A model generated the notes under the pieces. It was not told the DNA's origin and ran no database searches. It worked only from the letters and a program-made list of their open reading frames with translations. From NCBI GenBank assembly GCA_021735655.1, contig JAIPGM010000001.1, positions 161,728-225,727 of the forward strand: 64,000 bases of DNA, written 5' to 3'. Source of the stretch: Candidatus Omnitrophota bacterium (GTDB lineage: Bacteria > Omnitrophota > Gorgyraeia > Duberdicusellales > 4484-171). A program made the translations under genes and the position numbers. Each line of letters opens with the position of its first letter. Position 1 is the first letter of the stretch. Below are positions 2-63,561 of the stretch, piece after piece.

Positions 2-1240
2 CGTCTTGATCCAGTACGGGATAAATTACTCTATGACTATCTTTTAAAGCGTTTAATGAGAGAGGGTATGATTGGAGCAGCAGTTGATTTTGAACAAATG
101 ATGCAGGCTAATTCCCTTTCGGTTAATCTTGCCCAAGTTGCGACTAGAAGATTGTTGGCCGATATAGCTATTTATCACACCGAAGAATTTGCTTTAGGAT
201 TACATCTCCAAACTAAAGGCGTGCCAACCTTTATTATGCCTCCGGCAATTAACCCTTTTAGTTATAAAAATATTCCCCTAGCTGATAATTTTATTCGGGC
301 AACTATGGTTAAATATGGTTTAGATCCCAATAAATTTACGGTTGTTGAAATATCACGTTTCGATCCTTTTAAGGGGCCGCTGGAGGCCATTCAGGCTTTT
401 GTGCGTTTATTTTTGGATAATCCGGGATTGCAGAATGATTTACAATTTGTTTATGCCGGAAATATGGCTGACGATAACCCTAAGGGAAAACGCGATTTTG
501 AAAAGATCGATGCCTATTCTCGCTATCTTAGAAAGAAATTTCCTAAACTTAGGAAAGCCTTGTTTTTGCTCGGTCTTGGGAATAAACCCGGGACAGTAGC
601 CTTAAATTGGGCCCAGAGACGCAGCTTGCGTGTTGGTGGTCAGTTTGCTCGGCCATTTTCTCGGAAAGAGATAGGTCGACTCAACGGTGTTGAGATAAAT
701 GCTCTTGAGGTTAATGCTTTACAGCAACAACTTGAGATGGAAAAAAGAGACGGTAGGTTAGTTATTTCTTTACCGCGTAAAATAGCAATACAGCCTTCAT
801 CAAAAGAAGGTTTTGGCTTAGTGGCGGCTGAGGCTACCGGAAAAGGTACTCTGGTTATCGCTTCTTTGATCGGTGGCCTTAAAGCGCAATTAAAGGATTT
901 GCTTGCGCAAGCTTCTTGGTTGGGCATTAACTATACGCCGGAGGAAATTAGTCAATCTTTAGAGGTGTATGACTCAATGGATTCTGATCAGCATAGAGGT
1001 GTTGTTTTCGATGTGGCTTATTTGGAAAGAATTAATTTATATCAACGGCTTAATCAACGAGAATTCGTTTTGGGTTTAGCTACCTCTCTGCGGGTGGCTT
1101 ACGAACTGGCTCATAAAAATCCAGATGTCTATCGAGAGCTCGGTTTAGCTGCACGTTGCCAGACTTTAGATAAGTTTATTACTCTAGCTAATGTTGAGAA
1201 CCGCTTAGCCGCCGCTTCCTTGATTGTTGATAATCAGCAG
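2..1240 (+). other. Polyprotein unit S0: C-terminal half of a GT4 glycosyltransferase, trehalose synthase (TreT)-like
   Basis: EISRFDPFKGPLEAIQAF, NMADDNPKGKRDFEKI and SSKEGFGLVAAEATGKGTLVIASLIGGLKAQL match the remembered TreT/GT4 C-terminal Rossmann motifs (SRFDPWKG; EGFGLxxxEAxxKGxPVI). The N-terminal GT domain is not in the window. Confidence 0.6.
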
Positions 1241-4200
1241 CCCTTGGATAATGGTAAGCCAGAAGTTCCGATGCCTTCTTCTTATTGGATCGATCATAGC
1301 CTTCTTCATGAAATTGATAATGTTTGGGCTAACTTGGATTGGATTAATCCCGGGCCAAGTTTAAGCATAGCTCGCCAGATTGAGAAAAATTTTAAGCCAG
1401 CACAAGAGCCAGGTTTTTTAAGAGTTAGCATAGATGCCTTTGGTCCGCTTAACGGATTTAAAAATCAAGTATTAGCTGAACATGAGCAGTATTTTGATTC
1501 CGAGGTTTATAAAGATTATCGAGCTGGCATAATTCATGCTATTGATAATCTTTGGCAACACGGCGGAAAGTACGGTGCCTTATTTTTGATGGCTCAGCTT
1601 AGAGGACGAACCGTACGCTTTACTTATTGTTTGCTAGATCGCGGTGATGGTTTTATTAATGACGATTACAACCATGTTCGTTTAGAAGAAGCCGTTCAGG
1701 CACATAGAACATTTAAACGAGCCGGCAAGAATGGTATGGGCCTTTATTATATGGCGATAAAGCCGGATTATTTTTCAATCACCGCGGTTAATTGCTACCG
1801 GGCTGTTGCCACAACTCAAGCTCACTATTGGGAAACTGGCTACACTAAAGAATGGCCGTTTTGCCCGCAACAAACTCCGGTTAACAAGGGGGTGCGGGTG
1901 ATTTCGGTAAAGGATGTAGCTTTAGGCCTTTTGCCATTTTCGAATATGCAGCCGTTAGATAATGGCCGTCGAACTGATGAAGAACGCCTGGATTTTATCG
2001 GATTTTTAGTTGAGTCATATTTAGAGGCTTTATTTACTTTCCGGAGGTTAAGAGCAAATAACAGCGAAGTAGCCGAGATGTATCTGCCAGCAATTTCCGA
2101 AACTGCCGTTAGAAAGAAACGAGCCAAATGGGTAGTTACAGCTGTTGAGGTTGCCCGTGAGGCATTTCAGGTTATGGCTCGAGCTGATTTTCGACATTCA
2201 TCCGGCTTAACCATTCGTTCAATCTTTGATTCAATTTTGGCTTCTGGCGGTCGCAACCAAGCAGCTAATGATCTAGGAGTCGATCGCGCTAGCCTTACTC
2301 GCTGGATGCATAGCTTACCTAATGATTTATTAGGTGGGTTAGATCCAGAATTAGCAGTCTTCAAACAAAGAATCCTTGATTTATTTGATGAAAACAATAC
2401 TCGACCCCTAGACAACGGTAAAGAAAATATAGATTTATTAGCGGTTACAGCAGTTAAAAGAGAGGACACCTCACCGTGGCTGGCGGGCCCTCTCTCTGCT
2501 GTAGCCCCTATATATATAGGTAAACAGCAGGGGCCGCTAGATAACGGCCGAGCGCCTTTGGATAATGGCCAGCCAGCTAACTTTTGGAAAGTTTTGCATT
2601 CTGGTATATACGTACTTCCGATATATTACACTCGACTTTTCGATACAGCTAAAGACGCAGGAATTGGAAAATATACTTATGTAGTGCCGTTTGTTCGTGA
2701 TCATGTATTGTCTTTAGGCCATCAAGCGATACTTTTCTTACCGTTTTCTTTGCAGTTACCTTGGTCGCAATCTCCTTATGATGCGGCTGATTGGCGTTAT
2801 TTTAATACTGATTATATTGATTGGGGGCTTATCCCTGAGGCTCAACCTTTTCTAGGTAAGTTCGATTATTACGGTCATTCACAGCGTAGCGTTGATTTTC
2901 GATCAATCCGGCCACGTGAATTATTAATCGGAAAGGCCGCCTTTCTTAATCTCAGAGACAATCGAGAAAAACAATACCGCCAGCGCTGGGAAGATTTTCA
3001 AAGGTTTGTTAACAATCAGCGAAGTAGAGGGCCGGAGTGGGATTTAACCCATCTTGGTCATTACCGGGCCTTCAATGATGTCTTGGGTAATGATTTTGGT
3101 TTATGGGTTCATGAAGGGATGTATTGCCCTAGGCAGGATACCCATCCAGATGTTATCAAGTACAACGTTGCTGAGCAAAATAAAAATATGCAATATTCAG
3201 ATTTAATTCAGTTCTATCAATACCAGCAATGGATTGCTTTCGGCCAGGCTCGCGATATGCTTGAAGGTTTGCGCAATATTGGTGTCTTTTATCTTTTAGA
3301 TAATCCTTTCTTTCATGCTAAGGGTGGTATTAATTTTTGGACCCAAAACATCATTTCAAGAGATAGGCATTATGAATTTTTTGATCGTTCACCCGGTGTA
3401 CCCGGAATCGGTAGTGACCCTGAACAATTCTGGACATCTTTGGTTCCTTGGAATTGGCCTAGATTAAGAGAGTTGGACTATGAACCTTTCTTAAACCCTT
3501 ATCATTATTATTTAGGTGATTTGGGCGCTCAGGGAGTTCGGGCTGATGCTATTCATTTTCTTTTTCCTTGGATTCATTGGGAACGCGGTCCTTATGCTGC
3601 TAATTTTCAGAGTTGGGAGTCCCCGGGTCATGATTTACTTTGGAGATTAGACAACGTTTTTAATTCTTATGGAGCTTTCAGGCTTGGCGAGTTACTTGGC
3701 CCGGGTTTTGAAAGTATTCAGAGAATGGGCTTTGATAATTATCACTGGCATTTCTATCGGATGTGGAAATGGGGTGGCGGACCTGATTTAAATCCGGGTT
3801 GGAACGCAAAAGCTTTAGAGTTACATGATGGGCCGCGGGTTTGTGTTGACCATGAACACGGGTTCTATCCTTATGCCGGACACGCTTATTTACGGCATCG
3901 TTTGGAGGGCCCGGGCGGTCTAAAAGAATTAAATAGTCGTTTCCTTTTAGGCAGTTCGGATATAGCTATGGTTTATGCCGGAGATGAAGTAGCCGACAAC
4001 TGGTGGATAAATAACCCTAATCTGCCTGAGTGGATGATGGATCGTAATTGGGCCACTCGAATGCCAATGCAGGGCGATCAGGATTTTGATCTTTCAGTAG
4101 CCTTGTCCATGCTTGAGCATCGCCGTTGGATTGGCCAGCGTCTAATTGAGCGGACGCCTTTGGATAATGGTAAGCAAGAGTTTAATCATCTTAGCTTGGT

Positions 4201-25200: not shown

Positions 25201-28200
25201 TCAAGTTCTGGATGTAGATGTTCTTGGCCATGACTATTGTCATATCGATAGAGTTGGCTTTGACGCTTGGCCTGATATGGCTATCGATCACTTTGAAATG
25301 GCCCGAATTGTTGATGAGCAGGATCAGCTATTACACACTTTTTGGTACGGTGTTTATTCAGAACGGATTCCCAATAGAGGTAGAGCTAGAATTTTAGGGG
25401 CGACTTTTACTGCCGGAGGTCACCTGCGACTTGGTAACGAAGATGTTTATCATGATGCGAACTTTCCCGAAGCTAGAGTAAATGTTACTTATATTGACGG
25501 AGAAGTAAGTGAGATATTAATTTATCAGGATGCTCAAGGCAACTCAGTAAATTATCATTATACTAAAAAGCAGATAGATAATTATAAGCGCAGAGTGCAA
25601 TATTATAATCTGCGCGGTCATGTATTCGAGCATGCTTTAAGAGTTGCCTTACCTTTTTTAAGCGACTGCCCTTTTGATTATCAAAAGCGCATTGGTGGTG
25701 AAGTTGATGGGTGGGTTGATGGTGAAGCTGAACCAAAGCCAGCTGATTCCAGATCACTTAAACGTCCAGATTTTACTAGTCCTTTTAGCTGGGCAATGAG
25801 TGAAGGGGTATTGTGCTATATTGATGCTAAATTCAATCTTAGAATTAAGTTTTTAATAGAATATCTAGAGGCAATTAAAGAGACTTTAAGAACTGATTAT
25901 TTTACTGATTGTGATGCCCCAGTTGAAACACATTTTGTAGGAAGAGTTATATTTGAGATAGTTTATTTAGGCAGAGTAAGTGAAGCTAATGTAGAGGCAA
26001 AGTTAGCTGGTCATCAGAGAAATTTTTCAGCTACCAATTCTGAGATGCTCACCTTGAAACCAGTTAGCTTTCTTGATGAGTACGGAGATAGGCTTAAGAC
26101 CGCTGGTCAGGATACTTTAGTAAGGTTTCTGAGACATCTGAGAGTTTTTCATTATAAGCCAGGTCGCAAGAAAGCCTTAGATAGCTATTTAGCCCAATTA
26201 GAACAGGATAAAATTCCCGAGATAGCCGATGAGCAGACTAATCTTTTTTCAAGGCCGCTGGATAATGGCCGAGAAAGATTATTGGTTAGTAGCGGTAATA
26301 GTCATTTAAAAAGTTTTCGTGAGGCGAAAGGTTTATTAGCAAAATTAAAATGTACAGACATTTTTGGGGTTGTCATGGGTTATCGCGCTGCCTTAGCTGA
26401 TAGAGATAATTATCAGAGAGTATTTGCTCGTGATTCTGTTTGGATGGGGTTAGCCGAAATGCTTTCCGGCTGTAAAGGTAGTTTAGCTTTAACATTAAGC
26501 GTATTAAAACATCATCAATGTCGGTACGGACAGAGACGCGGGGCTATTCCGAGTAACATTTCAAGGTATCATCGGGTAAGTTATGGGACAACTAGCCCAA
26601 GAATTGATCCAACCCTTCTTTATATTGTTAGTTCTGGCCAATATTATCGGTCCAGACCAGCCTATTTTCAAAAACAGTTTCTCGTTGAAAATTTATCGCC
26701 GCTACAAAAAGCTATAGCATATTTAGAAAGACAATGGGTTATGGATAACGGTTTATTGTTTATTCCGATTGCCGGAGATTGGGCTGATGAATATTTTCAA
26801 CAAGGCCTTGTTTTGTATGATGAAGTTTTATGGTATATGGCACTTTCAGAGTATGCCTACCTTTTAGCTGAAGATAATAATTCTAATTCAGAAGTTTATC
26901 AAGCTAAGGCTGCTTGGGTAAAGAATATAGTCAGATCCAAATTTTGGATAAATAAAAATCCCGGTCAAGGCAATTTGGGGCATTTCCGTCATTTTTTCAA
27001 TCAATTACAAAGCCCGAATCAGGCAGCGACATTTGGCTGTCCCTATGATAGCTTTGATGCTTTTGGTAATATTTTGGCAATTCTTTCCGGCGTGGCTACA
27101 GAGGAGCAAACTGCTCAGATAATTAAATATATTGATGTAATTTCAGAAAATAATCAGCCATTACTGGTGCCGGCACATTATCCGGCAGAAGAAGTTGAAC
27201 ATTTTGTTCACACAGGTGCTCCGTATCGGTATCAATTTAAGAATAATCCCGGGTGTTATCATAATGCTGGTTTATGGTCATGGTATACAGGTTTATATGT
27301 TGCGGCATTAGTGAAAGCCGGCCGATTAGACCGGGCGGCTAAATTTTTAGAAGGGGTACAGCTAGCCAATGAAGCTAAGGACTCAAATGGCCGGGGGTAT
27401 CATGAGTACCATACTAATATTCCCGGTCAATTGAGTAGGCCGGGTGGAGTTAGCAATTTAGGTGTCAGCGCTGCTGGTTATATAATAGCTCACCAAGCAT
27501 TTTTTAAAAATAAGATTGTTTTTGGTCAGAATCATCCTTTAGACAACGGCCGTCAGATGCCTGATTATTTTTCTCCGGTTGGAGACGTCAATGTAACTCT
27601 TAATAGTTCTTCAGAAAAAGCCCCCCTTGATAACGGAAGAAATTATTCCAGTTCGCCAATATTTCAAGAGACAACCTTTACCTATTGGTTAAGAGTGAGT
27701 TTATATTTATTAAGATTTTTGCTTAGTGCACCTTATTATTTTATTATTACTTTAGTTGTATCAAGAATGATGAAAGGAAAAAACATTTTATTTGTATCTT
27801 ACCGTATTAATGAATTTGCTTTAGATGGAGTATCTTTAGAAATAAAAGAGTGGCGAAATCTTTTATATCGATTGGGCGCACATATTTTTCTATTTTCTGG
27901 TCATAGCAAAATTGTTCAGGATGGAAGTATCACCGGTCAGGCTCCGGATTGCATTGAGAGTGATTTTCTTGCTGAACAGGCAACAAAAATAAGAGAGAAG
28001 ATTGAAAGAGAGGGAAAGCTAGATGCTGAAGATTTTGAATTAATTCATAGAGCAAAAGAGATAATTAAACGCAATCTGCGTAAGTGTATCTTGGAAAATA
28101 ATATTCACTACATTGTTTCGGAAAATGTATTTTGTCTACCGGGAAACCTCGCTCTTGCCGAGGCACTTATAGAACTTGCCGAAGAGTTTCCTCGGTTAGG

Positions 28201-29311
28201 TTTTATTTCTCATAACCATGATTTTTGGTGGGAACGATCCCGCTATTCAAAACATATTCGCACTGATTGTGCTAGTTACTTAGATAACCTTCATAATCGA
28301 ATCCGTCGCCAAACAGTCGTTGTTATAAATCAAGGCCAGTTGAGAAATATTTCAGATCATCTCGATGCTGGTTTGCACAAAGTATTTATTGTTCCGAACG
28401 TAAGAGATTTTTCCCGAAAGCCAAAAGTAGATCATTCGTGCGTAGCTAGGCTTAAGACTTATCTAAGACAGAGGCACGGGATTACTGAAGATTGCCATGT
28501 ATTTTTAGCACCGGTAAGGCCCGTTTATCGAAAGAATTTAGAACATGCTATTGATGGTTTGGCTAAAGTTCAGGAAGAAATGGGGGAACCTTTGCTATTT
28601 GTTGTAAGCCATAGCGCCCAAGATTCTCAACCAGGTTACGTTGACCAACTAAGAGCTCGGGCTGAAAGCCAGGGTCTTAAATTTGTTTATCTGGGTGAAG
28701 AAGTGCTTTCCGGTCAGTTTAGCTTAGAGACGATATATGCTTTTTGTGATATGGTCATTGTTACTTCTACCTGGGAGGGTTGGGGTAATGCCACGCTTGA
28801 AGCATTTTATTACCAGAGACCAGTTATTGTCTGGCCGTACCAGGCTTACCAAACCGAGATAAAGCCTGTAGGGCTAAGTTGCTTAGAGGCGCCTGAATTT
28901 TCTTCTGAGGTCATTACTTCGATAATTACGGTTTTACGATTTACTTGGTTGAGAAAAAGAATTGCTAGAGGGAATTATTGGTTAGCTAAATTACATTTTT
29001 CTTACCGAAGGCTTACAAGAGTATTTTTTAAAGTATTTAATAATTTAGAATCTGCCGAAACCAAAACACAACAATTTCCGCTTGATAATGGTAAAAAGGG
29101 TGAGGGTTCTAAACCAAAACAAAAATTATCTCCTTTCGAGAGATTTAAACAAGACATAGACGAGCTTCTTAGCAATCCCCAAATCAGGCAAGTAAGCGTA
29201 GACAGTATTCTTCAATTTTACGGCCCACGGCTGAAACGCGATGTTGTTGAGGCCCATCTTAAAAGTAAGGGTTTCCAACGCCGGGATAGAGACACCTATT
29301 TAATTCCCTGA
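2..29311 (+). CDS. Giant multi-enzyme polyprotein-like ORF (5' end open at window edge; at least 9,769 codons)
   Basis: Frame 2 has no stop codon from nt 2 to TGA at 29309-29311. The ORF track starts at the first ATG (nt 56), but codons 2-55 (RLDPVRDKLLYDYLLKRL) are also open and read as part of the same GT4-like domain. All overlapping other-frame and antisense ORFs are under 130 aa. It contains at least 15 recognisable, mutually unrelated folds separated by a recurring PLDNG peptide. Confidence 0.9.
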   Translation, partial: RLDPVRDKLLYDYLLKRLMREGMIGAAVDFEQMMQANSLSVNLAQVATRRLLADIAIYHTEEFALGLHLQTKGVPTFIMPPAINPFSYKNIPLADNFIRATMVKYGLDPNKFTVVEISRFDPFKGPLEAIQAFVRLFLDNPGLQNDLQFVYAGNMADDNPKGKRDFEKIDAYSRYLRKKFPKLRKALFLLGLGNKPGTVALNWAQRRSLRVGGQFARPFSRKEIGRLNGVEINALEVNALQQQLEMEKRDGRLVISLPRKIAIQPSSKEGFGLVAAEATGKGTLVIASLIGGLKAQLKDLLAQASWLGINYTPEEISQSLEVYDSMDSDQHRGVVFDVAYLERINLYQRLNQREFVLGLATSLRVAYELAHKNPDVYRELGLAARCQTLDKFITLANVENRLAAASLIVDNQQPLDNGKPEVPMPSSYWIDHSLLHEIDNVWANLDWINPGPSLSIARQIEKNFKPAQEPGFLRVSIDAFGPLNGFKNQVLAEHEQYFDSEVYKDYRAGIIHAIDNLWQHGGKYGALFLMAQLRGRTVRFTYCLLDRGDGFINDDYNHVRLEEAVQAHRTFKRAGKNGMGLYYMAIKPDYFSITAVNCYRAVATTQAHYWETGYTKEWPFCPQQTPVNKGVRVISVKDVALGLLPFSNMQPLDNGRRTDEERLDFIGFLVESYLEALFTFRRLRANNSEVAEMYLPAISETAVRKKRAKWVVTAVEVAREAFQVMARADFRHSSGLTIRSIFDSILASGGRNQAANDLGVDRASLTRWMHSLPNDLLGGLDPELAVFKQRILDLFDENNTRPLDNGKENIDLLAVTAVKREDTSPWLAGPLSAVAPIYIGKQQGPLDNGRAPLDNGQPANFWKVLHSGIYVLPIYYTRLFDTAKDAGIGKYTYVVPFVRDHVLSLGHQAILFLPFSLQLPWSQSPYDAADWRYFNTDYIDWGLIPEAQPFLGKFDYYGHSQRSVDFRSIRPRELLIGKAAFLNLRDNREKQYRQRWEDFQRFVNNQRSRGPEWDLTHLGHYRAFNDVLGNDFGLWVHEGMYCPRQDTHPDVIKYNVAEQNKNMQYSDLIQFYQYQQWIAFGQARDMLEGLRNIGVFYLLDNPFFHAKGGINFWTQNIISRDRHYEFFDRSPGVPGIGSDPEQFWTSLVPWNWPRLRELDYEPFLNPYHYYLGDLGAQGVRADAIHFLFPWIHWERGPYAANFQSWESPGHDLLWRLDNVFNSYGAFRLGELLGPGFESIQRMGFDNYHWHFYRMWKWGGGPDLNPGWNAKALELHDGPRVCVDHEHGFYPYAGHAYLRHRLEGPGGLKELNSRFLLGSSDIAMVYAGDEVADNWWINNPNLPEWMMDRNWATRMPMQGDQDFDLSVALSMLEHRRWIGQRLIERTPLDNGKQEFNHLSLVESNGEQKLYSASSLVISQRGVYLSPTSTGPKEVISQIQLSPSGIKVSGELTSQEPKSRPIDYRHSYEINFYFEKLAKAYGRGLFVGINDVQLWIRLSQALGDFLWGVLRLETGIFDIPDRKLRRLVIQEALYHEVMTSALGLSVANRGLREFFATILSVSHFCYLSEIAKDQDKLNYRLGILQALDRGLIQMSDSLAGLYRQIAESGSLPDPATLVKAVITHINEEERYHSDRRSFRDYVRTKSENFSGRFTVGNLTQAVLNDSALQLELQAEWTNFLGFLANSQTVARAWQPKIKFIRGPRGIKVINPQGVPDQGGYQFQLQSFRAIFDCLGLPNPLSEPAALNRYLGFLPEPPEYDSQAVNLPELNISQILPGVAVVYPDSLEANQLAVRRALYELMNFRVWKLAVEIRGALGTEDALFFDQHCQVHSFVDVAQGWMLDLNPQSPIVYDDVLPGGQAYEAPEQPDLAEHERLHQKAQAVFSKVWAITMNRFLRDQRMFGGEAVGLVGFTTTVPILYRYIQQCKHSEPEYSLQRPLNNGLGILQYLQSLRRSQETEAARRVSLDQGFGQLKSLLVEKLQSIDSTTLSIANLDQALNEDSQAIFLTLEQLREARFQAESFRNGQVSMCDLASLALAAASEEVFGQRHLVKIVVGYYRVDEQLYKKHYWVVIDETLLIDITYGQFDPDHLNRILVATVDDYLRLKLEYGTELEPLDNGKQTQVQPTCLEARWWNNYYPGVIEGTGIRPTARSLSFEQIEEVVCLLLLDQAGQELVAKIINRELPDVYPSVRRTALKAMVRFDHYELFGPKIITCLQDVVRDGAEMYQPFALYALAQTPAFNGPVANRFAEEALKGTLKPSPRKPTAAEKTALQEGLEPNTQAIRFKSRLASVEYLKGVLAQRQGWARVCLGTVPHFSRVSNRALINKFAAQVLAADKKLSSSSAQRRQKDKSEFWGLEQAEFIHPATGHEALVELANDPELSSSDESPLVDQILHQMEELGYVPILRPSKFQLTEPAQGQEAEIDREALWTKDAVLMISTKFGIVPVSSALANLKGGEFVSGYGKRGSFMIIPAAALNSKQQLSDIIPEVPIHVFPSGFLVINDQGVIRLRGTSHIDTSLGAIPIMARPESGQLMLIDPLLHQVARTHPRYRDHYQSVVQEDGVRFIDVPEPERHLNPANFGILPGGEIFMPYAPRTKQVLIEAGVNEQYIIMLPSEFNKYLPTLHVLAGSIGCLVAQAFHPVEKREPLDNGHEKEKRQTRSRAIDISTKGAEDLLFTELQTGSLVSLVVDGLEYWLSLDQGDEVWFDLYRPKDDIIGYIYFRNDAMPARKIANFGGPSIVPAYRGRHLSRVLYFVYFRYLWRNNYIPEEDCLTIDDRLALKLYHEAKKFYYDQDHTFTPFQIIPRAEKTKAAKPLDNGHDMVQKQLFELIKRKSDSIKTFLEPFEACLAYNGVLALLIRGRPDLSVKFLLKKIGSAEHWFLLAETVLGNHQFVVDISPQGKMFTDIEVLVVDCAEAGKINYLYEDYTVVSDQETENLLRALARQKGMNEFLHLVHQLPEEKWIGRLPDSDQSMPLDNGKLINEGSESSFSDITNSMRVTFVMPMYNEQQRLLPKTSDNPYGEDALRVKVSQFRELEQENPNFQWRLIAVDDGTPGFASAKCLEQILAEIDAQNREFNIYSKVFVVVITEQEKKLLGSRKGGAVLRGFQEALSHGWADYIGITDTDISSNVNQTKDLILALRKGAGVAIGSRRQSGAEARGIPLLGRVSTVIYNWCIRLILWPLFSIRDTQRGFKLFQKEVIVRILPYARDHHLSFDTELLLLSRLAGYQIAEVPIVWIDSAEATTLVMSKDAPAMLWRVIKQARHIFNNPFRGQKPLDNGRKINLSVRMLRKARLITVHVDAGDCPAALASAIDKLVSGLGQIQVSRSNIVLNTAHQNSPMDIVSSVGSLSTEQITTLFPEAVFLIAGGNVFKCLRNLVESLAVGSVNKRTVRIFVLYDYTYGQGSNYSPEQLAGEYYDYFSDMLSVYSDRFNLAVFYLAQNQFEQEIYGKNLSGPNLSLAIIEKEALASQVPLDNGRSLGELTAEGYNLKFLARSSDLRMTAHCRRDVSFNSYLYDYRLDPEHTYRQAQLVPLVARSVKENAFRKSSDWQYLPQHLKDLYDSGKVLMIASRAQAKAKPSRYSALVISGRTEAFSGRMGILLYDNRPIIVSILDKPFFIEAKGIGVAQGGFSSVHRRSGHRYEVTGAQRWQASLKEFTSLELERKISRFFGTADTPRALAAIVYKYPQMDQLISDSLTSQAERREAKEQLGDSLGIMLRLSPSSRRFAYNLEQRHIRMLGEASARLLCSYLPRVHTSPHFENLLEWAEGSEFSWSDYGDIEVLFAQSSYHWSRSLINARRILMSYLETSISWNVNLLKKLGIIETEAEFISEYLAGFVAYAETLDWITPEAIERLARVRSPKEFVDVMIFEVFALNAYNVFKKQTYETIVEVNQNNLVEELLSSALTIAQRQEKAQLVAELSGHIEAAKQGEAFLGCRIKKSQANQGVLTPVAQPVKNSSWANPFFDQFAYDLWHALLFDDHNLYDYVQAKWDYTVGEEGAFNVAGFYLLDAHYLGLLRSRTSMHNIPEKLYMCSAGYEMTANINKLLTAINRVSLCPQENTLVRSTVRNTLQHAISQRLSKWRLARALILVVESNGEVLAGDDSTYVYIMDSGPGMPIDAVMQGDWRRHSTMFGTDLKGFREYRDVEWILDSWSSKAGGPQRWDGLRGGLVEGALVPDNMPLFGTLFGMRLKHGLESSSKPLDNGRDSRSKGQNLGSLGTANKAPPVKTYNVESPFNRFSLRLLDLILTLSFLPLIILASLPIAIFVKYQIFKHKTGQSVIFKEQRFGYKGKPFIMYKFRTYIGDKDNPKAVLLSLRCLGLDELPQWWNILKGDLSIWGVRPKLQDDPSSDSDFQAHLDQINDLRKPGIISLATADVHAEMEHVSFSAEHRDRQIAFDLYEAEYWSFFLAFKIVVLNIFAQFKEAARIVFRNKILVIVAVHIPQAEQPKAGPILNILEYLSQRFPSKYYSVFVGFPDSGNPNLNLDLAIPQGLTIGLGEGDEYNIVNSQGLKLKFSWQFEGPDDLSQRTLKIGRHKLLMPLCAESSLPVFSGAKKKIPHKAIFIPFIAFRPCIVTCMNDLIFLNLPIIGLDTANGIFLFVPGSTQIDIVGTNKLLAVAINHSGRVMGSSFKDLDQVVPLDNGRQTISHFRSGEGQSRTGPTSRNFPLDNGGRNNEAIENNRFSFANRLGKVLVATVIGGISLGLLYLFGGLDWYTNIKNSIPLGAVIFWPGAFLDMVTGVLIWLISDIVGQYLNQGRSIRYRQSFKVGAWGVFQGLATHILYNLVELLPVVPLPLAQAMFRTIFTLFGGLTINIFYTVVVARARKASKAEGYSGLKERHKAYDVIFSKFIVAPIKTYFIVNLLPPATRVISEQAWEYLMKVFDAYLMNRKDSLFSSYILNLLSRKKPLDNGRSGQSDDQITLVSDNLVDSFRNVRQRLVVTVRRAQMSRLDFKPGIVSLQNMSPKVDYFCLSSISERQEDIQAYRQVPLVQDGASFGESYSEKYLIAQEPDTLVLVEGDEGLIASFDYSLCGCLVIRARNLFGMAHLSPFIDFSDEEMEIENDRIYYKYLSVLDYFKLQGYKDVQIFLSLNELLQGFKTLKARLWSAGDSDATNRQRVVDLLGIEARQRGIAVVDRRLRQKSEVLDVLGFPRKMISRQWLNRGTKPESFEIIFIETRDELPVAINSETQQPEIEYFQFAWPVVIPLDNGRRKLPNDDWIWVNGESLQFVGRDGLLITGMEGRGKSFLARKIYDSDDRWKVVSCGATHVCIRNELAERALLGRRLSENNLLYSRLSGTIPVELSLDVVVRLNWVMALDDLYREILGGLLADAGQRESLGLKIIDMSDLDVTRQWPKVLKFINASIVKPETYDKGNSLFQVPLDNGRRAQVEQEREFLIQTIINVFSQGEGLCLEPAQIEAAIAVDTSFDEYRIARNLPIVIGLKGNIYENCPLASKPLLLVFTGRGSITKPELIFNAYTQQGLVREASRLSRSMETKNAIWEIPYHGKKTAFILEDKNNWIALAAVYGPEDIYQQGLLICKGGDRITRLGTEISQAAGEADEEAIFSDYSRALVVARLLGFSILDGPDMMRRVNRRMSAMIAAAKETVADINEFAKAYPGYEAVDTHHILKPTTSNPVEEGGFPHTEWMVTSRGVVQGTVTALRWLRQVLDVGENRYPEEVVRFVKNLNIFGSPMSYIVQGFGDVGSGITKLFLTIFKIFGFQARGFNNRYFAIYRREGLPKPFLVEAREIVEVSPDALDLGRLLAMKSFDDQLQGAVVWIANPINPKTKEPVFGPADVDRVNQALAERGVTAIWGDQTVVNELIYQKATVLFLAATANVISELSQVERLQVKIISEGANNAVKPELREPLRKANVFYIPGELLNGGGIYASKEDIRHNHTDGSELIRQHRQYYYIHVTDEIDTLALHRMISFLEIWAESAGNFSFDLTVHVEKVAGRIFEAADNLVRTNNTRLRKFTQIDQKRTFDHQAGRPTLPWRHSLYEIAIEMAPMGILYHLRDVGRHLSLLNRFKVAIKEDGQIDNYHICRLRFALFELTKLGYYLKSNQRRRLIGLLPGIITDEKCDGLLRKDAMFCLAMAIRWQEEESCKSEVDRARKLYLGILQNPLESAQLHTWAQHCLYRIFGENYFRRISADFDRLNGVNLPKPLDNGRDSSVGITSEPLRILAELISNSYRTKALVEFLQPFLDCESVNYLQEEIAKHCQLPAWGVVSSSHYLDEGYFYYGLKSGIDRCLERGVMVENDGNRLYVTKDSEDTVKYSGLDETQENQWGIFIFPSEYFNQAINCGYAEAGLRLSHNRLGITTYPYFKSSLSLAPARFLIIDRSKADEHRHLEGQPKLKDKLQALTEAGLKVLWLPDSSGPFFDPDFQYAFGELLFSNDIPETNRFLFYPSADTQDLTKIIWWVLQSLRMSSIKNRLLHNMELARQFKKIGPFDNGRADFTTADEQIGNLFAEAVITGDNVLIETHWDAVAAKRGGSLNILEHAGLRITRSLALGIVPRAGEWPDRVETDQIILSSSRYGWIDSERDIEHLLSGFDQARLLNSFNLGHYYQGCHYRSFLSWLAVLKSSHFPAVIFHFIGELINSWGIKPAAKSDFPVLASRRDIFSFVSVPYVSDIEKLDLPVAVFFDGKLSSLRRGDSRKQPTLILAYWQALNGFIGFKEQIARETAEFQNTPLDNGRKEHDISDSTVIQWPLNVIVKDMRGLSKGEILAVVKTGKIFWGREIVGAIFSDRNIVFGKVVDDKFIVFDDWLIERIPGGLLEGLRRSILFLPYLGSILRNKTSSINKPLDNGKKYNYRQVLEMVDCFDSARLEAHLFRALGRVETEAVSIAGDIIRAARKFERITKAVKSLYRKTYGKLPNFTLAFDPSGQGMYGAYQEDDTAGFFDHIGVAPEDVLLEVGSGDGSISDFMAHMFGIKATGIEVWEPYYHYAVFLRDEAVRRRFIPEGKVDFLNNNLVDVDFSKYSLVYYAALGTRRKSELAARLLGVREKSRILIRGSPDELVEGIIASHPDFSLRKLEIEVNENLTGIKARVYTRETITSYQPVLDVPLDNGRKNNPQMVRARLAAFEKSIEGIVPRADPLYDHLIRFYQYPLNNLGEPDEETYVRNNTKEQERELLRFWAGHFGLPKNYGGHVTIGIGQAEYYAMYVASNRFPKAIFYISNQVDSLLYDTLQVLGIDQGRIKLIRSLENGEIDYGDLKRKIRENSSWPAVVCLTAGRFLGAVDDLGKVEGILGSLGLKHKHIHCSMSPLSIGQSFLEDAAKIDFQHGLDSMSLPLYHFVRCPMPGVIVLTRRKYLQNIACSQKAAEYVNSNDTTNSGSRSGHAPLYLWFATKVIGTKGFKAQAERAREVCVSIKALFDRYGYPCRFTAQKNTIIFEPPFYELRQKWGLLSHGQWSCFEIVPYLTPVEIAEFVSDLLGDHSQAVAAPVETVFPERIVYEPSPEVLDVLDQLEARIQILMERFLGFPANIAGNETSFAALSSLFKYTLRKKDVEGFRHEALKFFTDLYGLRYEDFYCGITAGGTWGNRVGLLVGRENFPGGILYYSQDSHYSIDKVARSLNMEVRKVASLSNGQIDYDELAEAIEENRGRPVIVNLNIGTTMKGAIDNPQRVIEILREQDVTDYYIHCDAALFGMILPFLEAAPKIDLANGVHSIAISGHKFLGLPMPSGIFMVRKNCARDRLITISDRLLTAQTGHVILYFWQAVASRGYEGCREEAMACVDNAQYLYYRLQERGLPSEVNPFSNITMFSRPSGSLIDTWQLAPCGDRVHVVAMQHVTRDKIDAFVQELTRDMQQGQIELASSMQPLDNGRRRKASLVPEVGLDELVEKHLGNLKLISSEYGKSVGMLSTILRRPDNESLQQRAEELRKIGPGRLALAADLGEFGVDSLKIGQKYGVGRRTAASWLVNNGFGDRVNSARYSRSRTLRRQKIAQEYEPIARLLDGEGNLLQTFYTHISWKEVSAYPFAVLDELEIQATEVLSYGGKQWGQFKGHAGHRARITLEWGYPIEVAMSSKRGVDQGSYRAMQLRTYQSTLFDREGELLDTAFFVFGYDEDLCRGTTKVVNYQLTKAGRISIFGDEQIQLIKHKQAWANLVAVDGKVVRATILDREGGNEVITYNFSRVYDENNRVIYTFTGGLEFKQSSVPPALLKSLARGRIEGIYLKGGRGNLTIGGRTWVVLSDYKNYPCRAYIEEGLVVRVEVLGEEGEAVFTKHSHRLYDREDNFVEVFYDSISPERLNQVGLCRSSPLIVTPSGELCLSGNRYTFENEGGSKAIVWIEPGVKFTRNRKPDGKAVRIDFYDQYMHYKHTRYAVRIYEDEGVLIDTFFGPGYAEKLKIFGDVIGFAQLDTLGSLNIGYTTHTFTKYGDPRHFVRFSLHQAQVLDVDVLGHDYCHIDRVGFDAWPDMAIDHFEMARIVDEQDQLLHTFWYGVYSERIPNRGRARILGATFTAGGHLRLGNEDVYHDANFPEARVNVTYIDGEVSEILIYQDAQGNSVNYHYTKKQIDNYKRRVQYYNLRGHVFEHALRVALPFLSDCPFDYQKRIGGEVDGWVDGEAEPKPADSRSLKRPDFTSPFSWAMSEGVLCYIDAKFNLRIKFLIEYLEAIKETLRTDYFTDCDAPVETHFVGRVIFEIVYLGRVSEANVEAKLAGHQRNFSATNSEMLTLKPVSFLDEYGDRLKTAGQDTLVRFLRHLRVFHYKPGRKKALDSYLAQLEQDKIPEIADEQTNLFSRPLDNGRERLLVSSGNSHLKSFREAKGLLAKLKCTDIFGVVMGYRAALADRDNYQRVFARDSVWMGLAEMLSGCKGSLALTLSVLKHHQCRYGQRRGAIPSNISRYHRVSYGTTSPRIDPTLLYIVSSGQYYRSRPAYFQKQFLVENLSPLQKAIAYLERQWVMDNGLLFIPIAGDWADEYFQQGLVLYDEVLWYMALSEYAYLLAEDNNSNSEVYQAKAAWVKNIVRSKFWINKNPGQGNLGHFRHFFNQLQSPNQAATFGCPYDSFDAFGNILAILSGVATEEQTAQIIKYIDVISENNQPLLVPAHYPAEEVEHFVHTGAPYRYQFKNNPGCYHNAGLWSWYTGLYVAALVKAGRLDRAAKFLEGVQLANEAKDSNGRGYHEYHTNIPGQLSRPGGVSNLGVSAAGYIIAHQAFFKNKIVFGQNHPLDNGRQMPDYFSPVGDVNVTLNSSSEKAPLDNGRNYSSSPIFQETTFTYWLRVSLYLLRFLLSAPYYFIITLVVSRMMKGKNILFVSYRINEFALDGVSLEIKEWRNLLYRLGAHIFLFSGHSKIVQDGSITGQAPDCIESDFLAEQATKIREKIEREGKLDAEDFELIHRAKEIIKRNLRKCILENNIHYIVSENVFCLPGNLALAEALIELAEEFPRLGFISHNHDFWWERSRYSKHIRTDCASYLDNLHNRIRRQTVVVINQGQLRNISDHLDAGLHKVFIVPNVRDFSRKPKVDHSCVARLKTYLRQRHGITEDCHVFLAPVRPVYRKNLEHAIDGLAKVQEEMGEPLLFVVSHSAQDSQPGYVDQLRARAESQGLKFVYLGEEVLSGQFSLETIYAFCDMVIVTSTWEGWGNATLEAFYYQRPVIVWPYQAYQTEIKPVGLSCLEAPEFSSEVITSIITVLRFTWLRKRIARGNYWLAKLHFSYRRLTRVFFKVFNNLESAETKTQQFPLDNGKKGEGSKPKQKLSPFERFKQDIDELLSNPQIRQVSVDSILQFYGPRLKRDVVEAHLKSKGFQRRDRDTYLIP
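1256..1951 (+). other. Polyprotein unit S1 (232 aa): GHKL/Bergerat ATPase-like (anti-sigma-factor kinase-like)
   Basis: IIHAIDNLWQHGGKYG resembles an N-box and LLDRGDGF resembles a DxGxG G1 box. Confidence 0.35.
1967..2404 (+). other. Polyprotein unit S2 (146 aa): small helix-turn-helix protein
   Basis: GGRNQAANDLGVDRASLTRWMHSL resembles the Fis/NtrC-type C-terminal HTH. Confidence 0.4.
2420..2533 (+). other. Polyprotein unit S3: 38-aa inter-junction peptide, followed by a tandem junction (PLDNG-RA-PLDNG, 2534-2569)
   Basis: KENIDLLAVTAVKREDTSPWLAGPLSAVAPIYIGKQQG lies between sites 2405-2419 and 2534-2548. Confidence 0.6.
2570..4156 (+). other. Polyprotein unit S4 (529 aa): GH77 4-alpha-glucanotransferase (amylomaltase)-like
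   Basis: Four stretches follow the remembered MalQ order. GIGKYTYVVPFVRDHVLSLGHQAILFLPF...SQSPYDAADWRYFNTDYI matches GIGdfg...LP...SPY..S.f..Np. YQQWIAFGQARDMLEGLRNIGVFYLLDNPF matches fQW.f..Qw...GI.ligDlp. GVRADAIHFLF matches lRiDH. LGELLGPG and LHDGP follow. Confidence 0.55.
4172..5806 (+). other. Polyprotein unit S5 (545 aa): unknown function
   Basis: Bounded by site 4157-4171 and the degenerate PLNNG site 5807-5821. I recognise no family motif. Confidence 0.3.
5822..6337 (+). other. Polyprotein unit S6 (172 aa): transglutaminase/papain-like Cys-His-Asp module (candidate cysteine peptidase)
   Basis: GQVSMCDLASLALAAA (Cys codon 6083-6085), VVGYY, HYWVVIDE (His 6197-6199) and LLIDIT (Asp 6233-6235). 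This matches the remembered transglutaminase-like core G.C..fA ... GY ... HaW.ev ... W...D.t. Confidence 0.4.
6353..7939 (+). other. Polyprotein unit S7 (529 aa): HEAT-like N-terminal region plus guanidino-modifying-enzyme fold (amidinotransferase/arginine deiminase/DDAH-like)
   Basis: The N-terminal part (PSVRRTALKAMVRF...) is helical-repeat-like. The C-terminal part has GTSHIDT, NPANFGILPGGEIFMP and a terminal HVLAGSIGCLVAQ that resembles the catalytic Cys motif of this superfamily. Confidence 0.4.
7955..8440 (+). other. Polyprotein unit S8 (162 aa): GNAT acetyltransferase-like
   Basis: IGYIYFRND...IVPAYRGRHLSRVLYFVYF resembles GNAT motif A (V.P.yRG.G....L); the size is typical. Confidence 0.35.
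8456..8920 (+). other. Polyprotein unit S9 (155 aa): second Cys-His-Asp papain/transglutaminase-like module
   Basis: FEACLAYNGVLALL (Cys 8540-8542), AEHWFLLAE (His 8633-8635) and FVVDIS (Asp 8684-8686). The order and spacing match S6. Confidence 0.35.
8936..9826 (+). other. Polyprotein unit S10 (297 aa): GT2 polyprenyl-phosphate glycosyltransferase (DPM1/ALG5/GtrB-like)
   Basis: Carries VTFVMPMYNE, LIAVDDGTPG, RKGGAVLRGF, ITDTDIS, RDTQRGFKLF and SFDTELLLL, the classic GT-A GT2 motif series. An internal Met (MRVTFVMP) sits where a free-standing gene would start. Confidence 0.8.
9842..10417 (+). other. Polyprotein unit S11 (192 aa): unknown function
   Basis: Bounded by junction sites 9827-9841 and 10418-10432; no motif recognised. 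Confidence 0.3.
10433..12604 (+). other. Polyprotein unit S12 (724 aa): unknown, C-terminal GHKL-like ATPase motif
   Basis: The C-terminal VVESNGEVLAGDDSTYVYIMDSGPGMP resembles a D.G.G ATP-lid region. The rest is unrecognised. Confidence 0.25.
12620..13915 (+). other. Polyprotein unit S13 (432 aa): bacterial sugar transferase (phosphoglycosyl transferase, WbaP/PglC-type) plus unknown C-terminal domain
   Basis: A hydrophobic re-entrant helix (LLDLILTLSFLPLIILASLPIAIFV) is followed by FKEQRFGYKGKPFIMYKFRT and LRCLGLDELPQWWNILKGDLSIWGVRP. This is the hallmark KFRTM...DELPQ..NVL.G.MS.VGPRP series. Confidence 0.8.
13931..13999 (+). other. Polyprotein unit S14: 23-aa inter-junction peptide
   Basis: RQTISHFRSGEGQSRTGPTSRNF lies between sites 13916-13930 and 14000-14014. 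Confidence 0.6.
14015..14722 (+). other. Polyprotein unit S15 (236 aa): polytopic integral membrane protein (possibly Mpv17/PMP22-like)
   Basis: At least four long hydrophobic stretches: VLVATVIGGISLGLLYLFGGL, GAVIFWPGAFLDMVTGVLIWLI, AWGVFQGLATHILYNLVELL and IFTLFGGLTINIFYTVVVA. Confidence 0.6.
14738..15616 (+). other. Polyprotein unit S16 (293 aa): unknown, with a CheD-like Cys/His motif
   Basis: DYSLCGCLVIRARNLFGMAHLSPF (about 15080-15150) resembles the CheD deamidase motif LGSCV.v...D....gG.aH.mLP. Confidence 0.25.
15632..16141 (+). other. Polyprotein unit S17 (170 aa): P-loop NTPase, HPr kinase C-terminal-like
   Basis: LQFVGRDGLLITGMEGRGKSFLARKI contains a Walker A (GxxGxGKS) in an HprK-like context. 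Confidence 0.4.
16157..18496 (+). other. Polyprotein unit S18 (780 aa): Glu/Leu/Phe/Val dehydrogenase-like core flanked by unknown and helical-repeat regions
   Basis: LLICKGGDRI is a K-G-G catalytic-Lys-like motif and TSRGVVQGT follows it. YIVQGFGDVGSGITKLF matches QGFGNVG, ISEGANNAVKPE matches ANgP.t, and GGGIYASKEDIRHN is also present. Confidence 0.5.
18512..20419 (+). other. Polyprotein units S19 (281 aa, 18512-19354), S20 (237 aa, 19370-20080), S21 (108 aa, 20096-20419): unknown functions
   Basis: Delimited by junction sites 18497-18511, 19355-19369 (PFDNG), 20081-20095 and 20420-20434. No family motif recognised. Confidence 0.3.
20435..21205 (+). other. Polyprotein unit S22 (257 aa): class I SAM-dependent methyltransferase
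   Basis: Motif I VLLEVGSGDGSISDF, then ATGIE, and an acidic post-II region (FLNNNLVDVDFSKYSLVYY). Confidence 0.65.
21221..23479 (+). other. Polyprotein unit S23 (753 aa): tandem group II PLP decarboxylase (histidine decarboxylase-like); N-terminal copy lacks the PLP lysine
   Basis: Copy B (about 22330-23479) has YYSQDSHYSIDK, NIGTTMKGAIDN, HCDAALFG and HSIAISGHKFLGLPMPSGIFMVRK (Lys codon 23042-23044). Copy A (21221 to about 22320) aligns, but has DSMSLPLYHFVRCPMPGVIVLTRR at the equivalent place. Confidence 0.75.
23495..26254 (+). other. Polyprotein unit S24 (920 aa): HTH-like N-terminus, six ~95-100-aa internal repeats, C-terminal PD-(D/E)xK nuclease-like motif
   Basis: The repeats occupy about 23880-25600 and open with RLLDGEGNLLQTFY, TLFDREGELLDTAFF, RVYDENNRVIYTF, RLYDREDNFVEVFY, RIYEDEGVLIDTFF and RIVDEQDQLLHTFW. 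The C-terminal motif is LKRPDF...17 aa...YIDAKF. The N-terminal YGVGRRTAASWLVNNG is HTH-like. Confidence 0.4.
26270..27535 (+). other. Polyprotein unit S25 (422 aa): (alpha/alpha)6-barrel glycoside hydrolase, GH100 neutral invertase / glycogen-debranching GDE_C-like
   Basis: NYQRVFARDSVWMGLA, RGAIPSNIS, LYDEVLWYMAL and YHNAGLWSWYTGLYVAALVKAGRLDRAAKFLE match remembered neutral invertase/GDE_C motifs (dY.qvFiRD; YHNGG.WP...W....A.iK.gR). Confidence 0.6.
27551..27622 (+). other. Polyprotein unit S26: 24-aa inter-junction peptide
   Basis: RQMPDYFSPVGDVNVTLNSSSEKA lies between sites 27536-27550 and 27623-27637. Confidence 0.6.
27638..29077 (+). other. Polyprotein unit S27 (480 aa): membrane-anchored GT4 glycosyltransferase
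   Basis: An N-terminal hydrophobic helix (WLRVSLYLLRFLLSAPYYFIITLVV) is followed by ILFVSYRINEFALDGVSLE and the E-x7-E region TSTWEGWGNATLEAFYYQRPVIV. Confidence 0.7.
29093..29311 (+). other. Polyprotein unit S28: 72-aa C-terminal tail unit and TGA stop
   Basis: KKGEGSKPKQKLSPFERFKQDIDELL...RDTYLIP follows the last junction (29078-29092). Function unknown. Confidence 0.4.
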
Positions 29312-32036: not shown

Positions 32037-32064
32037 AACGATAAGTTAAGATTGAACAATAAAG

Positions 32065-33159: not shown

Positions 33160-33174
33160 CTTTTTAATTTTAAT

Positions 33175-34140: not shown

Positions 34141-34146
34141 TAGACT

Positions 34147-63267: not shown

Positions 63268-63561
63268 ATGAAAGCCGACCAGTTAAAGGGCAAGTGCATG
63301 ACTATTAACGAAGAAATTATTTCTTGGCGAGAGATCGACAAAGAGGTAGTATTTCTTAATAAACAGGAAAAAAGTTTTTACGAATTAAACAAAACAGCTG
63401 AGATCATTTGGCGCCAGTTAGCCAAAGGCGGTAAACTGACTCAGGTAATTTCTCAGGTTCAAAAGAAATATAAGAAAGTAGGTAAGCAAGACATAGAAAG
63501 AGATGTAATTGCTTTTATTGCAGATGGAATTAAGAAAAAAATATTTATTGTTAATAAATAA
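63268..63561 (+). CDS. PqqD-family protein (RRE-type peptide-binding chaperone-like)
   Basis: 97 aa. VVFLNKQEKSFYELNKTAEIIWRQL...QDIERDVIAFIADGIKKKIF follows the PqqD pattern. It is TAATG-coupled to the downstream radical SAM gene. Confidence 0.6.
   Translation: MKADQLKGKCMTINEEIISWREIDKEVVFLNKQEKSFYELNKTAEIIWRQLAKGGKLTQVISQVQKKYKKVGKQDIERDVIAFIADGIKKKIFIVNK

Follow-up and report, generated by a model that had tools for sequence, protein, structure and literature searches.

The first 29.3 kb of the window, a 64,000-nt stretch of DNA from a Candidatus (Ca.) Omnitrophota bacterium (contig JAIPGM010000001.1, positions 161,728 to 225,727), are the 3' portion of a giant gene that is genuine and belongs to the Omnitrophota "multi-enzyme" type. 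The gene encodes a single chain whose mass is at least 1.07 MDa, given 9,769 or more residues of about 110 Da each. About 25 enzyme and membrane modules that evolved independently make up this mosaic chain, and every module boundary is marked by the hexapeptide P-L-D-N-G-[R/K]. We lean towards endoproteolytic processing at PLDNG[R/K] as the most likely function of this motif. The fused architecture has already been described; the punctuation motif and its lineage-specific variants are new.

The giant open reading frame (ORF) occupies nt 2-29311 of the plus strand and is open at the 5' edge of the window. A stop codon scan of frame +2 yielded no stop between nt 2 and nt 29308, that is, over 9,769 codons, and the frame is closed by a TGA at nt 29309-29311. 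At the GC content of the window (38.5%), about 7% of random codons would be stops, so that the probability of such a frame is about e^-716 and chance is excluded. The remaining five frames contain between 1,236 and 2,008 stop codons each across the window. The GC content of the three codon positions is even along the 29 kb (GC1 about 0.50, GC2 0.38, GC3 0.33). Because TAA, TAG and TGA are all used as terminators by the 21 downstream ORFs, the genetic code is standard. In addition, the Logan contig SRR12088349_9023 (run SRR12088349) showed no difference from the window over the 21,719 nt compared (100% identity), and the frame of this contig is likewise open up to the contig end at about nt 2497 of the window. 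The first residues of the ORF align with about position 340 of P0001, a free-standing TreT-type glycosyltransferase, and the start codon therefore lies upstream of the window; the cut TreT domain implies at least about 340 residues beyond the 9,769 visible codons. The longest open stretch on the minus strand (1,353 nt, 4775-6127) runs antisense to the giant ORF; the codon bias of the sense strand probably accounts for it.

The exact pentapeptide PLDNG was found 27 times in the giant ORF, compared to 0.008 copies expected from composition, and two variants with one substitution each (PLNNG and PFDNG) raise the number of motif copies to 29. When one mismatch was allowed, the 29 copies compared with a maximum of 12 for the best pentapeptide of shuffled sequences. 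The motif did not occur in other frames or other genes of the window. Pro, Asn, and Gly are present in all 29 copies, and Leu and Asp in 28 copies each. The sixth position is Arg in 17 and Lys in seven copies (24 of 29 together), while the others have His (2), Gln, Gly, or Leu (1 each). The positions flanking the motif carry less than 1 bit each, and the conserved block is thus sharply bounded. At the nucleotide level, 28 different 18-mers underlie the 29 copies, and all six Leu, four Pro, four Gly, and five Arg codons occur in roughly the proportions found in the rest of the ORF. The constraint is therefore on the peptide and not on the DNA or RNA, and this codon usage indicates that the motif is maintained by selection at the peptide level. 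A role at the DNA level, be it as a recombination site, an RNA signal, or a hidden stop/start, was ruled out on the same grounds.

The 29 sites divide the chain into 30 segments. Twenty-five of these have a length of at least 100 aa (113-925 aa), and their median of 298 aa is the size of an ordinary bacterial protein; the shorter segments are four spacers (7, 28, 29, and 43 aa) and a 77-aa tail. Not a single copy of the motif lies inside a region aligned with Pfam or PDB entries (P about 0.003). The ten residues on each side of the motif are less hydrophobic than random windows, with a polar fraction of 0.65 versus 0.54 (about 5.7 standard deviations). The homology with two stand-alone decarboxylases (P0044 and P0045) extends from about 10 aa after one PLDNGR to about 8 aa before the next, and the TreT unit, the amidinotransferase-like unit, and CHD2, one of two Cys-His-Asp modules, each end 10-13 aa before a motif. 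The decarboxylase unit is a pseudo-dimer that is not split by a motif, and the motif thus delimits functional proteins rather than domains. Paired motifs bracket the short, unconserved spacers of 7-43 aa. No Met is present within 30 residues after the motif in 18 of 29 units, and these units could therefore not be produced by internal initiation at ATG, which, for ATG starts, was ruled out as the source of most units. The motif also does not correspond to a sortase or exosortase signal (an LPXTG or PEP motif followed by a transmembrane (TM) segment and a basic tail at the C-terminus), as it is internal, present in 29 copies, and not followed by a TM segment.

The segments are not related to one another. 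TRF detected no tandem repeats in the window, and unit-versus-unit BLASTP revealed no similarity between segments. At least nine distinct Pfam families were recognized at E<=0.01, each of them present only once or twice, so that no single family prevails in number. Even at E<=5, the cut-off used for unassigned units, about 18 of the 30 segments were without a Pfam match. The giant ORF had no Pfam matches to the repeats of adhesins, RTX proteins, or Ig-type surface proteins, to nonribosomal peptide synthetase (NRPS) or polyketide synthase (PKS) domains (condensation, adenylation, ketosynthase, acyltransferase, and carrier domains) at these cut-offs, or to Hint or intein domains, and a C39 or S8 peptidase domain was not found in the part of the protein within the window. 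The recognizable modules are predicted to act on alpha-glucans and trehalose, on glycoconjugates, and on amines. A sequence-only reading of this DNA had proposed a frame 2 without stops from nt 2, normal use of all three stop codons by the downstream genes, and a single ORF of unrelated, protein-sized modules set off by junction motifs, with a product that is neither a repeat-built adhesin, RTX or Ig-type protein nor an NRPS/PKS, and our results agree on all these points. The labels that it gave to the units fared less uniformly. GT4/TreT, GH77, GT2, Bac_transf/PglC-like, ELFV dehydrogenase, Ser/His decarboxylase, GH100-like, and GT4 were recovered with Pfam or PDB and the two Cys-His-Asp modules at the fold level, whereas the GHKL-like, helix-turn-helix, GNAT-like, and PD-(D/E)xK-like labels found no confirmation in Pfam.

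Next, the relatives of the units were considered. Nearly all named homologues of the chain are proteins from Ca. Omnitrophota metagenome-assembled genomes (MAGs), and one is from a MAG labelled Elusimicrobiota. Scans of the window with Rfam and for tRNAs were empty, and it contains no rRNA or marker gene. For unit 1, GTDB representative genomes contained no relative with more than 57% identity, and no match was obtained in JGI metagenomes. The sequence-only reading had raised the questions of whether the units are separate genes elsewhere and whether relatives share the fused form, and for the TreT-type unit and the tandem decarboxylase both turned out to be the case. The TreT-type unit is a free-standing ORF of 1,136 codons with its own stop codon in L004, and the closest relatives of the tandem decarboxylase, P0044 and P0045, are genes of 923 and 1,213 codons in Omnitrophota MAGs, which have their own stop codons and are 59-62% identical over both halves. 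With different neighbours, the same modules are found inside long frames: the TreT-type unit in two stop-free frames (L002 and L003), and the decarboxylase module in ORFs of 4,387-4,677 aa from JGI metagenomes (L010-12). An exhaustive HMMER search with units 8-11 yielded 36 matches, 11 of which are proteins of 1,564-7,652 aa, and those that are named belong to Ca. Omnitrophota MAGs. Because the TreT-type glycosyltransferase and the decarboxylase stand alone in some genomes and have different neighbours in other giants, the modules are shuffled cassettes, and the fused architecture is common in Omnitrophota. Just upstream of the stand-alone decarboxylase gene P0044, a gene for a protein of 1,477 aa (L008:1231-5664) has a match to the Pfam family Intein_splicing.

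The frame L002:3-15074 (JBDRKX010000100.1, the MAG labelled Elusimicrobiota) spans its contig without a stop and encodes at least 5,024 aa with GNAT, TreT-type GT4, two deaminase, Ser/Thr kinase, helicase, and MGS-like glycosyltransferase units, which are connected by acidic, Glu-rich linkers; no punctuation motif was found in it. Both of its duplicated deaminase units are preceded by IFDKEFI-GEVEEFPV-GPVFDLDGDG. The frame L003:3-8138 (PXAH01000113.1, an Omnitrophota MAG) is also open over its whole contig (at least 2,712 aa), and it contains two junction-like LDNGG sites directly after a low-molecular-weight phosphatase unit and a RidA unit, which may represent a diluted relative of the PLDNG code.

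Other Omnitrophota giants have different motifs. P0036 is a complete gene of 6,720 aa (L006:6195-26357, Ca. Omnitrophota MAG GCA_016930235.1) that contains R-[S/A]-E-x-[R/H] with 22 regular expression matches, or 26 with one mismatch. P0015 contains 20 copies of R-[S/A]-E-[I/M/V/L]-R when one mismatch is allowed, and in both cases the codons are diverse. In P0021, P0026, and P0035, 8-10 copies of [A/G]-G-L-E-E were found. The orthologous amidinotransferase-like unit allowed a direct comparison: 10-25 residues after this unit, the chain of the window has PLDNGH, whereas P0021 and P0026 have AGLEE. As in the window, short and unconserved spacers lie between paired motifs in P0036. Some spacers of P0036 contain copies of a repeat element, PLTLSLSPEGRGLGEG. 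In several of them (e.g. aa 983-1021, 3861-3922, and about 4560-4619), in-frame copies of a repeat element with the translation PLTLSLSPEGRG(L/M)GEG lie between RSELR motifs, and these spacers seem to tolerate insertions in the way that intergenic DNA does, with the frame staying open. As further motifs, [S/N]SLG in P0003, RSSSG in P0029, and GGG[M/L]S in P0013 were tried and rejected, as they did not exceed shuffled sequences; the P0013 string is inseparable from a repeated domain.

A motif that is near-invariant within one protein, restricted to boundaries, selected as a peptide, and variable between lineages implies a co-evolving, sequence-specific reader. As the best-known system with these properties is a polyprotein with its protease, processing is favoured. 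The motif would then serve as a code that is recognized by a sequence-specific factor, and this factor is most probably an endopeptidase. During or after translation, it would cleave the chain into proteins of the size of the units and set free the short spacers of 7-43 aa, as happens with viral polyproteins. Our guess for the scissile bond is Asn-Gly, because Asn and Gly are invariant while the sixth position varies, and because cleavage there would leave a stabilizing N-terminal Gly. According to the N-end rule, Gly is stabilizing at the N-terminus, whereas an N-terminal Arg or Lys is an N-degron in bacteria. Expression from one ORF would fix a 1:1 stoichiometry and co-localize the whole pathway with each translation event. 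The distribution of the motifs suggests PLDNG[R/K] as the code here and RSE[L/I]R and AGLEE as the codes of other lineages. We tentatively propose, as a possibility to be taken seriously, that some Omnitrophota express whole metabolic and envelope pathways as RNA virus-like megadalton polyproteins with a lineage-specific code that is read by a co-evolving endopeptidase.

The polyproteins of picornaviruses, potyviruses, and coronaviruses, with their proteases 3C, NIa, and Mpro/PLpro, share with the giant ORF that several proteins are encoded by one long ORF, that a short linear consensus at each junction is uniform within a genome and varies between lineages, and that a cysteine protease-like module is embedded in the chain. 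In contrast, the ORF described here is part of a cellular DNA genome, its cargo consists of metabolic and membrane enzymes, and the chain is 3-10 times longer. Furthermore, cleavage is established for the viruses and inferred here, and the candidate modules are SseI/transglutaminase-like instead of belonging to the 3C or papain PLpro families. Recognition repeats that flank cassettes also occur in multi-core precursors of ribosomally synthesized and post-translationally modified peptides (RiPPs), such as the cyanobactin precursor PatE, and in fungal Kex2 precursors, where a dedicated protease acts and spacers are discarded, as is proposed for the giant ORF. However, the cassettes of these precursors have 6-20 aa, compared to whole enzymes of 110-925 aa here. 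One ORF for several enzymes of a pathway is also found in mitochondrial Arg5,6, which is cut internally by MPP into two enzymes (PMC8734313), and in the uncleaved AROM, CAD, and PKS/NRPS proteins. Arg5,6, AROM, and CAD combine two to five enzymes, as opposed to about 25 here, and have no repeated site code, and PKS/NRPS proteins are built of repeated homologous modules, which were not found here.

The chain itself contains two candidates for the processing enzyme, CHD1 (unit 8, nt 5807-6337) and CHD2 (unit 11, nt 8441-8920, aa 2814-2973). CHD1 combines a helical N-terminal region with a papain/transglutaminase-like core in which Cys93 is at the N-terminus of a helix. CHD2 was modelled by AlphaFold with a pLDDT of 85.5 in an SseI/PMT-C3/transglutaminase-like fold; Cys34 caps a helix, His65 and Asp82 are on adjacent strands, and all three residues are invariant among four homologues. 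The nucleophilic Cys at the start of a helix that packs against a beta-sheet with His and Asp, and a Cys-His-Asp triad that is invariant among homologues, place both modules in the papain/transglutaminase-like Cys-His-Asp hydrolase superfamily. Neither module has a sequence-level match to any Pfam or PDB family, so that only the fold comparison is informative, and the best structural matches of both are deamidases. Hydrolases of the SseI, Pasteurella toxin C3, and LapG type have the same arrangement of a Cys at a helix N-terminus and His and Asp on adjacent strands, and the triad of SseI (C178-H216-D231) is similar in spacing to that of CHD2. CHD1 and CHD2 differ from them in sequence (identity of only 11-15%), and they may be proteases, deamidases, or transferases. 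Proteases are not the only enzymes with a papain/transglutaminase-like fold, which is shared by deamidases and transferases. Therefore, CHD1 and CHD2 may be regarded as candidate processing enzymes with a weak link to the motif.

Several observations count against processing of the chain. Cleavage is a strong inference from the motif and not from the protein level. In P0036 and P0015, the motifs are strong and CHD modules are absent, while P0013, P0020, P0023, and P0031 have CHD modules without a clear motif. The absence from P0036 and P0015 rules out the CHD modules as a universal processing enzyme. In 9-10 of the 16 multi-enzyme giants examined, comparison of k-mers with shuffled sequences did not detect a punctuation motif, and the motif is therefore not required for the multi-enzyme architecture; punctuation is a feature of a subset. 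Word-indexed searches, an exhaustive HMMER search, and metagenome scans did not find a second protein with PLDNG; the two LDNGG sites of L003 come nearest to it. Lastly, Asn-Gly is the classic dipeptide of type I' beta-turns and the one most prone to deamidation, and structural or chemical roles of the motif are thus conceivable.

If the chain is processed, it is equally possible that the protease is not a CHD module and is encoded elsewhere or in the upstream N-terminal part of the gene. The N-termini of P0036 (aa 1-510), P0015, and P0003 and the start of P0013 share a domain of about 450 aa after a signal or anchor helix. This domain has no Pfam match, and its conserved elements IQDAHDSLEAQ and GGFH may be similar to the pair of GxxH motifs in the ChaN/TraB/Tiki superfamily, of which a metalloprotease is a member. 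A function of the domain in processing in cis is conceivable, and it is possibly present upstream of the window.

A rather unlikely alternative to processing is that the chain remains uncut and forms a "metabolon on a string" that is tethered to the membrane. The motif would then be an uncleaved linker, in which Asn-Gly forms a hinge or turn, or a short linear motif at which a chaperone, a scaffold, or a partner protein docks. Asn-Gly indeed strongly favours tight turns, many related giants lack any motif, and no protease has been tied to PLDNG. Also, a recent preprint treats such giants as membrane-anchored multi-domain proteins (10.64898/2026.06.07.730766). However, equivalent junctions in other giants use R-S-E-L-R or A-G-L-E-E, which are not turn formers, and what they have in common with PLDNG is recognition rather than structure. 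Moreover, a hinge does not need near-invariance at five positions, and the paired motifs around unconserved spacers of 7-43 aa, together with the insertions of repeat elements in P0036, look like excised material.

It is improbable that the units are separated without a protease, either by autocatalysis at Asn-Gly via a succinimide, as in asparagine peptide lyases and possibly triggered by an SseI-like module, or by 2A-like ribosomal skipping. The invariance of Asn and Gly in 29 of 29 copies and the structural similarity of CHD1 and CHD2 to deamidases would fit the former, and 2A sites also end with N-P-G. Nevertheless, known Asn lyases require a folded catalytic context and not a linker of six residues, and a Gly after Asn favours deamidation over cleavage of the backbone. 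The 2A/StopGo consensus D(V/I)ExNPG followed by Pro does not describe the junctions, at which the residue after PLDNG is R, K, H, Q, G, or L but in no case P, and 2A is not known to work on bacterial ribosomes. The motifs RSELR and AGLEE of other lineages, which lack Asn, argue against a mechanism based on chemistry or on the ribosome. Finally, that the open frame is an artefact of misassembly, of consensus errors that removed stops, or of decayed non-coding DNA is scarcely credible even for a metagenomic assembly, given the chance probability, the even codon periodicity and the independent assembly described above, nine Pfam families that are all in frame, homologues with 58-62% identity across 750 aa, and the same architecture in many Omnitrophota MAGs and in complete nanopore genomes.

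The sequence-only reading had considered this organization to be undescribed, which is out of date. West-Roberts et al. 2023 (10.1101/2023.11.21.568195) reported giant genes of Omnitrophota, suggested post-translational, autocatalytic cleavage by C39 or S8 peptidases, and stated that the cleavage points are unknown. A bioRxiv preprint of June 2026 (10.64898/2026.06.07.730766) described 5,761 Omnitrophota proteins of at least 10 kAA (thousand amino acids) with lengths of up to 147,155 aa, and "multi-enzyme metabolic clusters" are class 1 of its three architectural classes. The giant ORF, of which 9,769 codons are visible, resembles the class 1 proteins in that many different enzyme Pfams are strung along a single ORF, in its content of sugar metabolism, GT1, methyltransferase, and GNAT units and scattered TM helices, and in that the nearest homologues are Omnitrophota MAG proteins and cleavage has been hypothesized. 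It differs by the near-invariant hexapeptide at every boundary, as no such element is reported there, and by the lack of C39 and S8, the proposed processing enzymes, in its visible part. The junction motif is not mentioned in either preprint, and the words polyprotein, cleavage, linker, motif, and junction are absent from the text of the 2026 preprint. The literature searched contained no relevant context for the string PLDNG, and a literature search on polyproteins in bacteria led only to studies of viruses and eukaryotes.

The giant genes of Omnitrophota have been recognized as a puzzle only recently, and the literature has asked whether their products function uncut or are cleaved and, if so, at which sites. 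The motif, to which the different motifs of other lineages can be added, makes this question testable. Together, these motifs predict exact termini that can be sought in existing metaproteomes, allow giants to be split sensibly for structure prediction, and offer a handle on the cognate enzyme by phylogenetic co-occurrence. If the interpretation is true, these would be the first predicted cut sites for bacterial giant proteins. If processing were confirmed, the giant gene would apply the polyprotein strategy of viruses, in a cellular setting, to about 25 enzymes at once, and the lineage-specific codes would provide natural orthogonal protease/site pairs for stoichiometric multi-enzyme expression.

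The individual units and motifs, all on the plus strand, are given in the order of the chain. Unit 1 (nt 2-1240) comprises the C-terminal two thirds of a TreT-type GT4 enzyme, the N-terminal part of which lies upstream (Pfam Glycos_transf_1; PDB TreT, E 1e-13), and it is 51-57% identical to Omnitrophota homologues. It is followed by PLDNGK at 1241-1258 (aa 414), PLDNGR at 1952-1969 (aa 651), PLDNGK at 2405-2422 (aa 802), and the double motif PLDNGR-A-PLDNGQ at 2534-2572 (aa 845 and 852). Unit 6 (2555-4156, 534 aa) is a GH77 4-alpha-glucanotransferase-like protein (PF02446, E 1.6e-10), after which PLDNGK is found at 4157-4174 (aa 1386). CHD1 starts with the degenerate PLNNGL at 5807-5824 (aa 1936), the weakest copy, which may be no true junction, and is followed by PLDNGK at 6338-6355 (aa 2113). 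Unit 9 (6338-7939) has no Pfam match and is amidinotransferase/deiminase-like by sequence signature only (NPANF...C); homologues occur in many Omnitrophota giants. PLDNGH is located 13 aa past its end, at 7940-7957 (aa 2647). Further motifs precede and follow CHD2, PLDNGH at 8441-8458 (aa 2814) and PLDNGK at 8921-8938 (aa 2974).

Unit 12 (8921-9826) is a GT2 glycosyltransferase with a DPM synthase-like catalytic domain (PF00535; PDB 5mlz). Downstream of it, PLDNGR is present at 9827-9844 (aa 3276), 10418-10435 (aa 3473), and 12605-12622 (aa 4202). Unit 15 (12605-13915) is a PglC-like phosphoglycosyl transferase with an N-terminal hydrophobic helix and an extra C-terminal region (Bac_transf, E 1.6e-27; PDB 8g1n), and its TM segment was located at aa 4248-4266. 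A 28-aa spacer peptide then lies between PLDNGR (aa 4639) and PLDNGG (aa 4667) at 13916-14017. Unit 17 (14000-14722) is a polytopic membrane unit, for which a hydrophobic-helix scan revealed at least three helices. It is followed by PLDNGR at 14723-14740 (aa 4908), 15617-15634 (aa 5206), and 16142-16159 (aa 5381). Unit 20 (16142-18496) is Glu/Leu/Phe/Val dehydrogenase-like with about 200 extra aa (PF00208, E 4e-12; PDB GDH). The next junctions are PLDNGR at 18497-18514 (aa 6166), the variant PFDNGR at 19355-19372 (aa 6452), PLDNGR at 20081-20098 (aa 6694), and PLDNGK at 20420-20437 (aa 6807). Unit 24 (20420-21205) is probably an S-adenosylmethionine (SAM)-dependent methyltransferase, with a weak match to DOT1 (E 7e-4) that is under the curated cutoff.

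Unit 25 (21206-23479) is a tandem pseudo-dimer of pyridoxal phosphate (PLP)-dependent decarboxylases. The motifs at its two ends, about 10 aa ahead of and about 8 aa past the homology with the stand-alone enzymes, are PLDNGR at 21206-21223 (aa 7069) and PLDNGR at 23480-23497 (aa 7827). Its two halves are paralogous to each other (25% identity, E 6e-29). The second half resembles Ser/His decarboxylases (PDB 8jg7, E 1e-70 to 2e-70) and has the PLP-binding GHKF, where the first half (21206-22360) has LYHF and has lost the PLP lysine. The latter is thus probably a catalytically dead partner in the fused pseudo-dimer. The tandem arrangement is conserved in P0044-P0046. After a further PLDNGR at 26255-26272 (aa 8752), unit 27 (26255-27535) is GH100 (alkaline/neutral invertase)/GDE-like (PF12899, E 4e-12; PDB 5z73). 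Two PLDNGR copies (aa 9179 and 9208) surround a 29-aa spacer peptide at 27536-27640. Unit 29 (27623-29077) is a GT4 glycosyltransferase with a hydrophobic N-terminus (Glycos_transf_1 and Glyco_trans_1_4), and the last motif, PLDNGK at 29078-29095 (aa 9693), precedes the 77-aa C-terminal tail.

Two gene clusters follow the giant gene. A complete Opp-type oligopeptide ABC importer (29352-35115), which comprises SBP_bac_5, two permeases, and two ATPases, starts 40 nt past the stop codon of the giant gene on the same strand and is possibly co-transcribed with it. Further downstream, a dense radical-SAM cluster (37346-63264 and 63268-64000) contains multiply fused genes, including an ORF with three radical-SAM and three SPASM domains (43160-47014) and an ORF with two B12-radical-SAM units (50920-54078); the PLDNG motif was not found in the fused genes of this cluster. 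It also holds a methyltransferase gene, two GT1 genes, ABC exporters, and, at about 63268-63561, a small PqqD-like ORF that is followed by another radical-SAM gene. In its composition, this cluster looks like a RiPP-type maturation cluster.

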